Shown here: positions 35,176 through 64,000 of the stretch, piece by piece
How positions within the stretch are numbered: position 1 is the first letter of the stretch
Layout of the letters: each line of letters begins with the position of its first letter
From: Escherichia coli
GTDB taxonomy: Bacteria; Pseudomonadota; Gammaproteobacteria; Enterobacterales; Enterobacteriaceae
Length of the DNA: 64,000 bases
Assembly (NCBI RefSeq): GCF_003018255.1
Contig: NZ_CP027440.1
Direction: 5' to 3' (one strand)
The notes under the pieces: generated by a model
The model's input: only the letters and a program-made list of their open reading frames with translations
Database searches by the model: none
Told to the model about the DNA's origin: nothing
Program-made: the position numbers and the translations under genes

Positions 35176-35208
35176 AAAAAGCCCCGCAACGTGTTGCGGG
35201 GCTTTCAT
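35176..35208 (-). terminator. Intrinsic terminator after rpmA
   Basis: Minus strand gccccgcaacacgttgcggggc followed by UUUUU. Confidence 0.7.
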
Positions 35209-48542: not shown

Positions 48543-48830
48543 ATGCAGCTCAACATTACCGGAAATAACGTCGAGATCACCGAGGCACTGCGCGAATTTG
48601 TTACAGCCAAATTTGCCAAACTTGAGCAATATTTTGACCGAATCAACCAGGTCTATGTTGTTCTGAAAGTGGAGAAAGTCACCCACACCTCAGATGCAAC
48701 ACTGCATGTAAACGGTGGTGAAATTCATGCCAGCGCGGAAGGTCAGGACATGTACGCTGCCATTGATGGCTTAATTGATAAGCTGGCACGCCAGTTGACC
48801 AAACATAAAGATAAACTGAAACAACACTAA
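48543..48830 (+). CDS. hpf: Ribosome hibernation promoting factor
   Basis: Track ORF 48459..48830 trimmed to ATG 48543 (MQLNITGNNVEITEALR...), 95 aa. Confidence 0.95.
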   Translation: MQLNITGNNVEITEALREFVTAKFAKLEQYFDRINQVYVVLKVEKVTHTSDATLHVNGGEIHASAEGQDMYAAIDGLIDKLARQLTKHKDKLKQH

Positions 48831-48947
48831 TTGTCCGGGCAATTAGCATGTGCATGGCGGCCTGTTGTGCGGCACAACGGGCCATTTGTACGGTTAATGC
48901 TCCGAGCCTGTTCCACTGTTTGAGTGGGCAGGTTCTTAGGTGAAATT

Positions 48948-49439
48948 ATGACAAATAATGATACAACTCTACAGCTTAGCAGTGTTCTTAACAGGGAATG
49001 TACGCGAAGCCGCGTCCACTGTCAGAGCAAAAAACGCGCCCTGGAAATCATCAGCGAGCTGGCGGCGAAACAACTTAGTCTGCCGCCTCAGGTGGTTTTT
49101 GAAGCTATCCTGACGCGGGAAAAAATGGGCAGTACCGGTATCGGCAATGGTATTGCCATTCCGCATGGCAAACTGGAAGAAGATACTCTGCGCGCCGTTG
49201 GCGTTTTCGTTCAGCTCGAAACGCCTATAGCTTTCGATGCCATTGACAACCAACCGGTAGATTTACTATTTGCCCTGCTGGTGCCGGCAGACCAAACTAA
49301 AACGCACCTGCATACTCTGTCACTGGTGGCGAAACGTCTGGCGGACAAAACCATCTGCCGCCGTTTACGCGCAGCCCAGAGCGATGAAGAGCTGTATCAA
49401 ATCATTACGGATACCGAAGGTACTCCGGATGAAGCGTAG
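48948..49439 (+). CDS. ptsN: PTS(Ntr) EIIA component PtsN
   Basis: Track ORF 48924..49439 (GTG) trimmed to ATG 48948 (MTNNDTTLQLSSVLNREC...), 163 aa. Confidence 0.95.
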   Translation: MTNNDTTLQLSSVLNRECTRSRVHCQSKKRALEIISELAAKQLSLPPQVVFEAILTREKMGSTGIGNGIAIPHGKLEEDTLRAVGVFVQLETPIAFDAIDNQPVDLLFALLVPADQTKTHLHTLSLVAKRLADKTICRRLRAAQSDEELYQIITDTEGTPDEA

Positions 49440-50339: not shown

Positions 50340-50608
50340 CCGTCAAGCAAACTGTTGAAATCACAAACAAGCTGGGCATGCATGCCCGGCCTGCAATGAA
50401 GCTGTTTGAATTAATGCAAGGTTTTGACGCAGAAGTGCTGTTACGTAATGACGAAGGTACCGAGGCCGAAGCCAACAGCGTTATTGCACTGCTGATGCTG
50501 GATTCTGCCAAAGGACGGCAGATTGAAGTTGAAGCGACCGGTCCACAGGAAGAGGAAGCACTGGCCGCCGTTATCGCCCTCTTTAATTCTGGTTTTGATG
50601 AAGATTAA
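50336..50608 (+). CDS. npr: Phosphocarrier protein NPr (PtsO)
   Basis: Track ORF, 90 aa; HPr-like His in GMHARPA; ATGA overlap with rapZ. Confidence 0.95.
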
Positions 50609-50754
50609 TCTTCATCACTTTGACATTCAAATCCCTTCAAGCTCCCCCCGACAATAAGAAAATCACGTACTGAAATCGTTCTCAATCAACGTCATTTGTA
50701 CATTTTGTGCGCTTTTCACTTTCAGAAGAACCTTAAGAAAACCTTAAGAAGCAT

Positions 50755-60000: not shown

Positions 60001-61555
60001 GCCGCACCACGATATCTACTCTATTGAGGATTTAGCGCAGCTGATTTTCGACCTCAAGCAGGTTAACCCGAAAGCGATGATCTCCGTGAAGCTGGTTTCC
60101 GAACCGGGCGTAGGCACCATCGCGACTGGCGTGGCAAAAGCTTATGCCGATTTAATCACCATCGCAGGCTATGACGGCGGCACCGGCGCAAGTCCGCTTT
60201 CATCGGTGAAATACGCAGGCTGTCCGTGGGAGCTGGGGCTTGTTGAAACCCAACAGGCGCTGGTTGCCAACGGCTTGCGTCACAAGATCCGTTTGCAGGT
60301 CGATGGCGGCCTGAAAACGGGTGTCGATATCATCAAAGCAGCGATTCTTGGCGCGGAAAGTTTTGGCTTCGGCACTGGCCCGATGGTAGCGCTTGGCTGT
60401 AAATATCTGCGAATTTGCCACCTGAACAACTGCGCCACGGGTGTAGCAACTCAGGATGACAAACTGCGTAAGAATCACTATCACGGCCTGCCGTTCAAAG
60501 TGACTAATTACTTTGAGTTTATCGCCCGTGAAACCCGCGAGCTGATGGCACAGCTGGGGGTAACGCGTCTGGTGGATCTGATTGGTCGCACCGACCTGCT
60601 GAAAGAGCTGGACGGTTTCACCGCCAAACAGCAGAAACTGGCACTGTCGAAGCTGCTGGAGACTGCTGAGCCGCATGCTGGTAAAGCGCTCTACTGCACC
60701 GAAAACAACCCGCCGTTTGATAACGGCCTGCTGAACGCGCAGTTGCTGCAACAGGCAAAACCGTTTGTCGATGAACGCCAGAGCAAAACCTTCTGGTTCG
60801 ATATCCGCAACACCGACCGTTCTGTCGGCGCATCGCTTTCAGGCTATATCGCCCAGACGCACGGCGATCAGGGGCTGGCTGCCGATCCTATCAAAGCGTA
60901 CTTCAACGGCACCGCAGGCCAGAGCTTCGGCGTGTGGAACGCGGGCGGCGTGGAACTGTACCTGACCGGTGATGCCAACGACTATGTCGGTAAAGGCATG
61001 GCGGGCGGCTTAATCGCCATTCGTCCTCCGGTTGGCTCAGCCTTCCGCAGCCATGAAGCGAGCATTATCGGCAACACCTGCCTGTATGGCGCGACCGGTG
61101 GTCGTCTGTATGCCGCAGGCCGCGCGGGTGAACGTTTCGGCGTGCGTAACTCCGGTGCTATCACCGTGGTAGAAGGCATTGGCGACAACGGCTGTGAATA
61201 TATGACGGGTGGTATCGTCTGTATTCTGGGTAAAACCGGCGTTAACTTCGGCGCAGGCATGACTGGCGGCTTCGCTTACGTTCTCGATGAAAGCGGCGAT
61301 TTCCGCAAACGCGTTAACCCGGAACTGGTCGAGGTCTTAAGCGTTGACGATCTGGCGATCCATGAAGAGCATCTGCGCGGTCTTATCACCGAGCATGTTC
61401 AGCATACCGGTTCTCAGCGCGGTGAAGAGATTCTGGCGAACTGGTCAACCTTCGCCACTAAATTTGCGCTGGTTAAACCGAAGTCCAGTGATGTAAAAGC
61501 ACTGCTGGGTCACCGTAGTCGTAGCGCAGCAGAGTTGCGCGTGCAGGCGCAGTAA
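57095..61555 (+). CDS. gltB: Glutamate synthase (NADPH) large subunit
   Basis: Track ORF 56987..61555; start set at ATG 57095 (MLYDKSLERDNCGFGLIA...) preceded by GGGGGAGG Shine-Dalgarno, 1486 aa; in-frame ATGs at 56987 and 57002 are alternatives. Confidence 0.95.
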   Translation: MLYDKSLERDNCGFGLIAHIEGEPSHKVVRTAIHALARMQHRGAILADGKTGDGCGLLLQKPDRFFRIVAQERGWRLAKNYAVGMLFLNKDPELAAAARRIVEEELQRETLSIVGWRDVPTNEGVLGEIALSSLPRIEQIFVNAPAGWRPRDMERRLFIARRRIEKRLEADKDFYVCSLSNLVNIYKGLCMPADLPRFYLDLADLRLESAICLFHQRFSTNTVPRWPLAQPFRYLAHNGEINTITGNRQWARARTYKFQTPLIPDLHDAAPFVNETGSDSSSMDNMLELLLAGGMDIIRAMRLLVPPAWQNNPDMDPELRAFFDFNSMHMEPWDGPAGIVMSDGRFAACNLDRNGLRPARYVITKDKLITCASEVGIWDYQPDEVVEKGRVGPGELMVIDTRSGRILHSAETDDDLKSRHPYKEWMEKNVRRLVPFEDLPDEEVGSRELDDDTLASYQKQFNYSAEELDSVIRVLGENGQEAVGSMGDDTPFAVLSSQPRIIYDYFRQQFAQVTNPPIDPLREAHVMSLATSIGREMNVFCEAEGQAHRLSFKSPILLYSDFKQLTTMKEDHYRADTLDITFDVTKTTLEATVKELCDKAEKMVRSGTVLLVLSDRNIAKDRLPVPAPMAVGAIQTRLVEQSLRCDANIIVETASARDPHHFAVLLGFGATAIYPYLAYETLGRLVDTHAIAKDYRTVMLNYRNGINKGLYKIMSKMGISTIASYRCSKLFEAVGLHDDVVGLCFQGAVSRIGGASFEDFQQDLLNLSKRAWLARKPISQGGLLKYVHGGEYHAYNPDVVRTLQQAVQSGEYSDYQEYAKLVNERPATTLRDLLAITPGENAVNIADVEPASELFKRFDTAAMSIGALSPEAHEALAEAMNSIGGNSNSGEGGEDPARYGTNKVSRIKQVASGRFGVTPAYLVNADVIQIKVAQGAKPGEGGQLPGDKVTPYIAKLRYSVPGVTLISPPPHHDIYSIEDLAQLIFDLKQVNPKAMISVKLVSEPGVGTIATGVAKAYADLITIAGYDGGTGASPLSSVKYAGCPWELGLVETQQALVANGLRHKIRLQVDGGLKTGVDIIKAAILGAESFGFGTGPMVALGCKYLRICHLNNCATGVATQDDKLRKNHYHGLPFKVTNYFEFIARETRELMAQLGVTRLVDLIGRTDLLKELDGFTAKQQKLALSKLLETAEPHAGKALYCTENNPPFDNGLLNAQLLQQAKPFVDERQSKTFWFDIRNTDRSVGASLSGYIAQTHGDQGLAADPIKAYFNGTAGQSFGVWNAGGVELYLTGDANDYVGKGMAGGLIAIRPPVGSAFRSHEASIIGNTCLYGATGGRLYAAGRAGERFGVRNSGAITVVEGIGDNGCEYMTGGIVCILGKTGVNFGAGMTGGFAYVLDESGDFRKRVNPELVEVLSVDDLAIHEEHLRGLITEHVQHTGSQRGEEILANWSTFATKFALVKPKSSDVKALLGHRSRSAAELRVQAQ

Positions 61556-63168: not shown

Positions 63169-64000
63169 ATGGAATCGCTCTCAGAGAGAACCTCAACAGG
63201 CTACCAGCAAATCCACGACGGTATTATTCACCTGGTCGATAGCGCCCGGACGGAAACGGTACGTAGCGTTAACGCGCTGATGACCGCGACATACTGGGAA
63301 ATTGGCCGACGAATTGTCGAATTTGAACAAGGTGGCGAGGCCAGGGCTGCGTATGGTGCGCAGCTAATCAAGCGACTATCAAAGGATTTAAGTCTAAGGT
63401 ATAAGCGTGGGTTCTCTGCAAAAAACTTACGCCAAATGAGGCTTTTTTACCTCTTTTTTCAACATGTTGAAATTCGCCAGACAGTGTCTGGCGAATTAAC
63501 ACCATTGGGAATTCCGCAGACACCATCTGCAGAATTCCCATCGGCAAAGATTTGGCAGACGCTGTCTGCCAAATCTTTCCCCCTGCCCTGGTCCACCTAC
63601 GTCCGTTTACTTTCCGTTAAAAACCCTGATGCCCGCAGCTTTTATGAAAAAGAGACGCTCCGCTGTGGTTGGTCTGTCCGCCAGCTAGAGCGGCAAATTA
63701 CGACCCAATTTTATGAGCGAACACTACTGTCACATGACAAATCAGCCATGCTGCAACAACACGCTCCTGCCGAGATGCATATTCTTCCGCAACAGGCGAT
63801 ACGCGATCCCTTTGTGCTCGAATTTCTGGAGTTGAAAGATGAATACTCAGAATCTGATTTTGAGGAGGCGCTGATCAACCACCTGATGGATTTCATGCTG
63901 GAACTTGGGGATGATTTTGCCTTTGTTGGTCGGCAGCGAAGGTTACGCATTGATGACAACTGGTTTCGGGTCGATCTGCTGTTTTTCCACCGCCGTTTAC
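63169..64000 (+). CDS. DUF1016/YhcG-like PDDEXK-nuclease-family protein (partial; 3' end beyond window)
   Basis: Own translation from ATG about 63169, open to window end: MESLSERTSTGYQQIHDGIIHLVDSARTETVRSVNALMTATYWEIGRRIVEFEQGGEARAAYGAQLIKRLS...PWSTYVRLLSV...IRDPFVLEFLELKDEYSESDFEEALINHLMDFMLELGDDFAFVGRQRRLRIDDNWFRVDLLFFHRRL; absent from track because it has no stop in the window. Confidence 0.7.
   Translation, partial: MESLSERTSTGYQQIHDGIIHLVDSARTETVRSVNALMTATYWEIGRRIVEFEQGGEARAAYGAQLIKRLSKDLSLRYKRGFSAKNLRQMRLFYLFFQHVEIRQTVSGELTPLGIPQTPSAEFPSAKIWQTLSAKSFPLPWSTYVRLLSVKNPDARSFYEKETLRCGWSVRQLERQITTQFYERTLLSHDKSAMLQQHAPAEMHILPQQAIRDPFVLEFLELKDEYSESDFEEALINHLMDFMLELGDDFAFVGRQRRLRIDDNWFRVDLLFFHRRL
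63471..63577 (+). repeat. Three consecutive hairpin-forming palindromic units inside the DUF1016 coding sequence
   Basis: aattcgccagaca-g-tgtctggcgaatt (perfect 13-bp arms); ggaattccgcagac-acc-atctgcagaattcc (14-bp arms, 2 mismatches); aagatttggcagac-gct-gtctgccaaatctt (perfect 14-bp arms); coordinates approximate. Confidence 0.8.

Follow-up and report, generated by a model that had tools for sequence, protein, structure and literature searches.

A structured spacer between hpf and ptsN in the rpoN operon of Enterobacterales, very probably maintained as sense-strand RNA

We report here that the 117-nt spacer between hpf and ptsN in the Escherichia coli rpoN operon is very probably a selected RNA structure of the sense strand, and that this fold is maintained across Enterobacterales while the underlying sequence is replaced. 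The spacer is transcribed within the rpoN operon mRNA. In growing E. coli, the structure depresses neither ptsN mRNA nor ptsN translation. We tentatively regard it as a junction (anti-polarity or coupling) element, a mechanism that we infer from the predicted pairings between the end of hpf and the start of ptsN. The operon is a very well-studied one, in which the structure appears to be undescribed and absent from Rfam; a full-text literature search found no paper describing an hpf-ptsN hairpin. Conserved intercistronic hairpins as such are an already known kind of element.

The window (the whole stretch of E. coli DNA that was analyzed, 64,000 nt) carries this chromosomal operon in the order lptB-rpoN-hpf-ptsN-rapZ-npr; its products are sigma-54, a ribosome hibernation factor, nitrogen-PTS proteins, and RapZ. 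The hpf-ptsN spacer is the sole long untranslated gap of the operon (Table 1). Of 5426 complete E. coli genomes, 5406 contain the 470 nt surrounding the hairpin at 99% identity or more, with hpf and ptsN annotated and nothing annotated in between. K-12 MG1655 differs from the window spacer by a single substitution, C48861T (NC_000913.3; position 1992 of L001), which turns a hairpin C-G pair into U·G. Because the difference is one base only, published K-12 data are applicable to the window. As the spacer amounts to 39 codons, hpf and ptsN share a reading frame, and an in-frame TGA (48921-48923) blocks read-through from one to the other in the window. Two database proteins, one of 224 aa (Shigella flexneri) and one of 282 aa, combine an Hpf domain (PF02482) with a PtsN domain (PF00359); these may be fusions or gene-call artefacts.

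Table 1. Features of the hpf-ptsN junction in the window
Feature	Position	Strand	Description
hpf CDS	48543..48830	+	ribosome hibernation promoting factor, 95 aa; from the ORF list and the RefSeq annotation of an identical E. coli sequence
hpf end strand CAC TAA TTGTCC	48825..48836	+	last codon, stop, and first 6 spacer bases; predicted to pair with the ptsN RBS region
hpf stop codon TAA	48828-48830	+	end of hpf CDS
hpf-ptsN spacer	48831-48947	+	117 nt, hpf TAA to ptsN ATG
Rod	48837..48902	+	66 nt; MFE fold and RNAalifold consensus
Rod lower helices	48837-48841/48898-48902, 48843-48847/48893-48897, 48849-48854/48887-48892	+	carry H1 at the tip
Apical hairpin H1	48859..48883	+	finding of the first-pass annotation; stem GGCCUGUUGUG/CACAACGGGCC, loop CGG 48870-48872, U·G 48863:48879
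Second hairpin H2	48904..48935	+	lineage-specific insertion of ~35 nt; base GARYCUG/CAGRUUC conserved, apex variable
ptsN Shine-Dalgarno AGGTG	48938..48942	+	5 nt 5′ of ATG; read from the sequence
ptsN CDS	48948..49439	+	EIIA-Ntr, 163 aa; ATG 48948-48950

A first-pass annotation of this DNA had quoted a palindrome, ggcctgttgtgcggcacaacgggcc, as a hairpin with 12-bp arms and one mismatch. We located it at 48859-48883, and the hairpin (H1) stands, but not in the form described. A twelfth pair would leave an impossible 1-nt loop; the stem that can fold pairs 48859-48869 with 48873-48883 (11 bp) and closes a 3-nt loop, and the presumed mismatch, T48863/G48879, is a U·G wobble. RNA folding, proposed in that annotation as a check, gave -19.1 kcal/mol for the 38-nt stretch that bears H1 (48855-48892; z = -2.6, with 3 of 200 shuffles equally stable). 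Segments of 38 nt that fold as well make up 0.29% of the same strand of the 64-kb window (about 19 loci), and the stability of H1 is uncommon within the window, but not unique. These figures come from a sliding-window fold scan, used in place of an inverted-repeat search that had missed H1 (its longest exact seed is 7 nt).

H1 forms the tip of an interrupted rod of 27 to 28 predicted base pairs, amounting to roughly two turns of helix broken by small internal loops, and the rod is followed by H2. The structure as a whole starts 6 nt past the hpf stop and ends 2 to 3 nt before the ptsN Shine-Dalgarno (SD) sequence. The complete spacer has a minimum free energy of -55.2 kcal/mol (z = -5.06), a stability reached by none of 200 shuffles and by 0.12% of the 117-nt segments in the sliding-window fold scan of the 64-kb window. 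Two further 117-nt stretches on the + strand match this fold strength, at approximately 63476-63592 (-58.5 kcal/mol) and 60201-60317 (-56.7 kcal/mol). Perfect 13-nt palindromes are found at the npr end (50596-50617, TGATGAAGATTAA/TTAATCTTCATCA), at 63471-63497, and at 35178-35205, the last of which, AAAGCCCCGCAAC..GTTGCGGGGCTTT, is terminator-like in appearance. The hpf-ptsN spacer matched none of the Rfam 15 covariance models, including those for GlmY/GlmZ; the only four hits obtained at E <= 10 were to unrelated families and no better than chance. Nor is it a REP/BIME element: at blastn sensitivity, the median number of places matched per genome by a 99-nt query spanning H1 and H2 was 1 across 5425 E. 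coli genomes, and the H2 motif occurs once in the window.

Comparison of related genomes indicates that the fold is under selection. A protein-guided scan yielded 66 distinct hpf-ptsN spacers from 80 Enterobacteriaceae loci, and the rod was aligned in 38 rows, comprising the window spacer and 37 homologous spacers (from Escherichia, Salmonella, Citrobacter, Enterobacter, Lelliottia, Leclercia, and others). In this alignment, 97.7% of cells are paired over the named structure (98.1% for the rod), compared with 37 to 44% when partners are slid, and an RNAalifold consensus of the 38 spacers independently gives the same rod at -34.1 kcal/mol. Double-sided changes are seen at six base pairs, including GC<->AU exchanges in the rod at columns 12:68 (G-C to A-U in Escherichia) and 20:61 and changes in H2 at pairs 77:110, 78:109, and 79:108; most of the changes in paired columns are wobble-compatible transitions. 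All 10 unpaired columns vary, with a mean entropy of 0.94 bit, compared with 0.15 bit for the 56 paired columns (p = 7e-7). Conservation of the arms in orthologous spacers was the point on which the first-pass annotation had staked its case, and here the H1 arms proved to be nearly invariant across the 38 spacers while the loop varies freely. Between genera, rod identity is 79 to 93%, compared with 38 to 58% at four-fold degenerate sites of hpf and ptsN.

The fold also depends on the strand. The antisense spacer folds at only -33.7 kcal/mol (z = -1.7), and in all but one of 67 unique enterobacterial spacers, the sense strand folds more stably than the antisense strand (means, -38.1 versus -28.4 kcal/mol). 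These 67 structures contain a mean of 5.3 G·U pairs per 29 bp, and such pairs become C·A mismatches on the opposite strand. Together with the conserved paired columns, this agrees with the earlier suggestion of an RNA element inside the rpoN operon. The same annotation had offered a protein-binding palindrome as an alternative, and the H1 arms do constitute an 11-bp inverted repeat around a variable 3-bp center, to which a dimeric protein might bind as DNA. We nevertheless consider a DNA site, or a functionless chance palindrome, extremely improbable. The fold needs its G·U pairs and loses much of its stability on the antisense strand, the lower helices of the rod have no DNA palindromy, and the same site holds unrelated hairpins in other genera; as for chance, conservation is far above that of synonymous sites and the z-scores are strongly negative. 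Three other candidates were rejected. A consensus scan found no sigma-70 promoter in the spacer; a sigma-54 promoter candidate picked out by eye (TGGCGG-N4-TTGT) is wrongly spaced, has an incorrect -12 element, and is absent in the Citrobacter and Enterobacter versions; and a CsrA site is unlikely, as the E. coli loops lack GGA.

Unrelated hairpins occupy the same spacer in Klebsiella, Kluyvera, Kosakonia/Phytobacter, Trabulsiella, Pseudescherichia, and Shimwellia and, outside Enterobacteriaceae, fill it in Yersinia, Dickeya, and Erwinia. Across 15 representative spacers, drawn from the genera with unrelated hairpins and from the H1 class, z-scores ranged from -2.3 to -6.3. At least 10 hairpin sequence classes (L030-L087) can be distinguished at this junction, the replacement being wholesale, while the first 10 and last 17 spacer bases are almost constant across classes. 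Repeated palindrome insertion or template switching could account for such replacement. H2 consists of some 35 nt inserted between GCGCU and UAGG (window 48904-48935; also L002-L008, L020-L025, L029, L039, and L045). It is carried by Escherichia, Salmonella, Citrobacter of the C. koseri/amalonaticus/sedlakii-like kind, and Intestinirhabdus, whereas the C. freundii complex, Enterobacter, Lelliottia, and Leclercia lack it. The hairpin has a conserved base, CCGAAyCUG/CAGrUUC, and an apex that is unlike in each species, yet always paired.

Farther afield, five more distant PtsN relatives were sampled, and three of the five genomes had no adjacent hpf and were uninformative. In one of the pair L091 and L088 (PtsN 54% identical), the hpf-ptsN gap is 6 nt, and in the other (PtsN 67% identical), there is no hpf and ptsN comes immediately after rpoN. 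Given these arrangements, the structured spacer is lineage-restricted. Another of the more distant relatives has an 11-bp hairpin within a 101-nt spacer.

The structure is most likely not an efficient intrinsic terminator. It has the GC-rich stem-loop of one, but the tail of H1, AUUUGUAC, has a run of only 3 U and 4 U in 8, where a terminator U-tract would have at least 5 U in 8, and a terminator scan of the spacer made no call; the first-pass annotation had rightly seen neither a U-tract nor a terminator here. In 72 of 73 orthologous or analogous spacers, the hairpin tail has 4 U or fewer in 8 nt (the exception, L053, has 5 in 8), and the U runs in these tails never exceed three. The contiguous-stem measure applied to this set captures bulged rods incompletely, for instance in Shimwellia and K. 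pneumoniae. Term-seq was another of the checks proposed. The curated tables of Adams 2021 (LB at OD 0.4, LB at OD 2.0, and M63 glucose) contain no hpf entry and no 33465xx coordinate, and hence no 3′ end at MG1655 3346513 (H1 end), 3346532 (rod base), or 3346565 (H2 end). The SMRT-Cappable-seq supplements are likewise without an hpf or ptsN entry. The mRNA levels reported by Burkhardt 2017 are 203 for lptB, 213 for rpoN, 254 for hpf, 175 for ptsN, and 159 for yhbJ, giving an hpf/ptsN ratio of 1.45, or a drop of 31% across the junction. Dar & Sorek 2018 (PMC5927463) analyzed 390 operons, a set that leaves out gene pairs split by intrinsic terminators and that includes lptB-rpoN-hpf-ptsN-yhbJ (S2); it appears neither in the group of 47 operons found to decay differentially nor in the tables of protective structures (S3-S7). 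In growing cells, then, there is little termination at the spacer element and no large stability difference arising from it. The literature look-up thus gave neither a 3′ end nor a loss of downstream transcript of the kind that a terminator produces.

A weaker effect might be imagined, in which H1 and the AUUUGU after it stop a few polymerases, or do so only with a cofactor, and thereby produce a modest excess of hpf. The 31% fall in mRNA and the GC-rich stem base followed by 3 consecutive U would fit a weak or conditional terminator or pause of this sort, as would the distant relative L090, in which an 11-bp hairpin is likewise followed by (A)UUUCAU. However, the site fails the terminator scan, its UUUGUAC tail is itself paired inside the rod, the tails of other hairpin classes hold 0 to 3 U, and Term-seq lists no 3′ end (Adams 2021). 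We therefore think this quite improbable.

The main rival to a junction element, and one that we consider rather unlikely, is a nuclease barrier or processing element that tunes the hpf:ptsN ratio, perhaps mainly in stationary phase, in which Hpf is required. It corresponds to the processing or stability element proposed in the first-pass annotation. Two variants can be envisaged. Following cleavage downstream, the rod could stop 3′-to-5′ exonucleases and so stabilize rpoN-hpf, as at malE-malF; alternatively, following cleavage upstream, it could shield ptsN-rapZ-npr as a stem-loop at the 5′ end, in the manner of papBA. A strong hairpin without a U-tract, stable and conserved inside an operon mRNA, resembles known protective structures, and since any stable hairpin would do, a barrier fits the replacement of sequence between genera. 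Dar & Sorek 2018 (PMC5927463) reported conservation of such protective structures among E. coli, Salmonella, and Enterobacter. The 1.45-fold excess of hpf mRNA over ptsN mRNA would also fit, but it lies within the scatter of the operon (203/213/254/175/159). Furthermore, the Term-seq tables of Adams 2021 have no 3′ end at H1, the rod base, or H2, and the operon is present in S2 of Dar & Sorek and missing from the differential-decay tables S3-S7. Published data, mostly from growing cells, thus show neither a 3′ end nor a difference of 2-fold or more in half-life or abundance, and do not speak in favor of a processing or stability role. A barrier also leaves unexplained why the structure spans the entire spacer and why the basal 5′ strand is conserved across hairpin classes.

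A related possibility, which we judge quite unlikely, is that RNase III cuts the interrupted duplex and so splits the transcript into an hpf half and a ptsN half. The rod, with about two helical turns and small internal loops, offers 27 to 28 predicted pairs where some 20 bp or more of near-continuous duplex is called for, and according to Altuvia 2018, RNase III sites are enriched in intergenic regions within transcripts. On the other hand, mRNA is near level across the junction and Adams 2021 lists no 3′ ends there. hpf and ptsN are not among the sites listed from Gordon 2017 or mentioned in the main text of Altuvia 2018, which weighs only lightly against cleavage.

We also considered whether the spacer is bound in trans. 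RapZ, whose gene lies two genes downstream, is an RNA-binding adaptor that hands GlmZ to RNase E, and the rod sequence is strongly conserved in the Escherichia-Salmonella-Citrobacter-Enterobacter group, as might be expected of a binding site for ProQ, RapZ, or a small RNA that conferred feedback on the operon. Yet the unpaired bases, where contacts would be expected, are the variable ones; sister genera have unrelated hairpins despite highly conserved RapZ and PtsN; and the spacer matches neither GlmY/GlmZ nor other Rfam models. A trans-acting factor is accordingly quite improbable in our estimation, and the narrower proposal, in which a factor from the same operon (chiefly RapZ, or else Hpf-loaded ribosomes) specifically recognizes the rod, is very improbable. 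Were the latter true, the rpoN-hpf-ptsN-rapZ-npr mRNA would be feedback regulated at its own hpf-ptsN junction, and the unrelated hairpins of other genera would be co-evolved or structure-only equivalents.

Two features go further than the mere presence of a hairpin: the structure takes up nearly the entire gap, and the 5′ basal strand hardly changes even where the hairpin above it has been replaced. The ptsN SD, AGGTG, is kept in all Enterobacteriaceae spacers, and the predicted partner of the basal-pairing strand, CACUAAUUGUCC, is the SD region. Base-pair probabilities for CACU:GGUG pairing with the ptsN SD are 0.45 to 0.87 in E. coli and Salmonella. In species without H2, the predicted partners are AAUUA-UG for CAC-UAAUU, the GG of the SD for CC, and GCUU for GGGC (P of about 0.9 to 0.99), and in Erwinia, with an unrelated 177-nt spacer, CACU:AGUG reaches a P of 0.97. 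At least in silico, then, the SD and start of ptsN are paired to the terminal part of hpf. From one hairpin class to another, UUGUCCG(G/A)GC, which makes up the first 10 bases of the spacer, is nearly invariant, as would be expected if this strand must match an unchangeable ribosome-binding site. Because the flanks are nearly invariant, the basal helix shows no true covariation; the changes seen in them (UAA to UGA, GGGC to GAGC/AGGC, and GCUU to GCUC) are all single-sided and wobble-compatible. Members of the C. freundii complex (L009-L019, L023, and L026) have an extra base past the stop, TAA-C-TTGTCC, and the predicted stop-to-start pairing there is bulge-shifted and still forms (P of 0.4 to 0.96).

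One way in which such an element might operate is as follows. By folding on itself, the spacer would loop out 55 to 125 untranslated bases and bring the hpf stop against the ptsN ribosome-binding site, with CAC-UAA-UUGUCC at the end of hpf paired to the SD and AUG-proximal bases of ptsN. A ribosome completing hpf, whose stop lies 6 to 8 nt from the rod, would melt the basal helix, expose the ptsN site, and be released right beside the ptsN start. Meanwhile, in a fully paired spacer, Rho would find no long unpaired stretch on which to load, nor RNase E one at which to enter. As a net result, ptsN-rapZ-npr expression would be continuous with hpf despite the long untranslated gap. We favor a junction element, in this tentative sense, because it accommodates a structure as wide as the gap, an invariant basal strand, near-level mRNA, and good translation of ptsN. 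Translation efficiencies in Burkhardt 2017 are 0.35 for rpoN, 0.62 for hpf, 1.12 for ptsN, and 0.75 for yhbJ, and the same study gives a low in vivo DMS Gini index, 0.286, for the ptsN start region.

Several observations constrain how literally this scheme can be taken. In E. coli, the inserted H2 displaces the simple stop-to-start closure, and opening the SD costs only about 2.2 kcal/mol. Masking the bases under a terminating ribosome gave no consistent rise in calculated SD accessibility, as the freed strand re-pairs with ptsN codons. Ribosome density is higher on ptsN (196) than on hpf (157) (Burkhardt 2017), and for this reason re-initiation alone cannot feed ptsN and independent initiation is required. 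Stop-to-start closure is not predicted in Yersinia or Dickeya. Moreover, the distant relative with 6 nt between hpf and ptsN indicates that the element is dispensable in principle.

The relative dosage of rpoN operon products matters for stress, potassium, and cell-envelope control, and the spacer structure provides a defined, easily mutated handle on the linkage or separation of hpf and ptsN-rapZ-npr. It is also a clean case of structure being conserved while sequence is turned over, with a lineage-specific hairpin insertion (H2) in addition. It overturns nothing, and the available data suggest no more than mild effects in growing cells.

With regard to known systems, H1 shares with intrinsic terminators a GC-rich hairpin soon after a stop codon but differs from them in having no U-tract, a tail that is paired in the rod, no listed 3′ end, and read-through. 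The REP element between malE and malF is an operon-internal stabilizer hairpin. Dar & Sorek 2018 (PMC5927463) described 26 hairpins at decay-generated 3′ ends. Like these, the hpf-ptsN element is a stable stem-loop without a U-tract in a polycistronic mRNA, conserved in enterobacteria; unlike them, the H1 rod has no mapped 3′ end and the hpf-ptsN junction no decay or abundance difference of 2-fold or more. The protective structures of Dar & Sorek, moreover, are generally within coding regions, whereas this rod is in a spacer. From the malE-malF element it differs further in being single copy and not a REP.

Operon processing hairpins cut by RNase III are found at rpsO-pnp, at rplL-rpoB, and in the rnc leader. 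The rod resembles these in being a long, interrupted, intercistronic duplex of about two turns, and differs in that the accessible data yielded no evidence of its cleavage.

Translational coupling through masking of a downstream ribosome-binding site is exemplified by secM-secA and by the coat-replicase and lysis arrangements of RNA phage MS2. The likeness is that the ptsN SD and start are predicted to be paired with the 3′ end of hpf and that a ribosome at the hpf stop would open this pairing. In contrast to those systems, however, the mask on E. coli ptsN is weak (about 2 kcal/mol), ptsN is translated better than hpf, hpf-ptsN has no known stalling signal, and the element is for the most part a loop-out rod rather than a mask.
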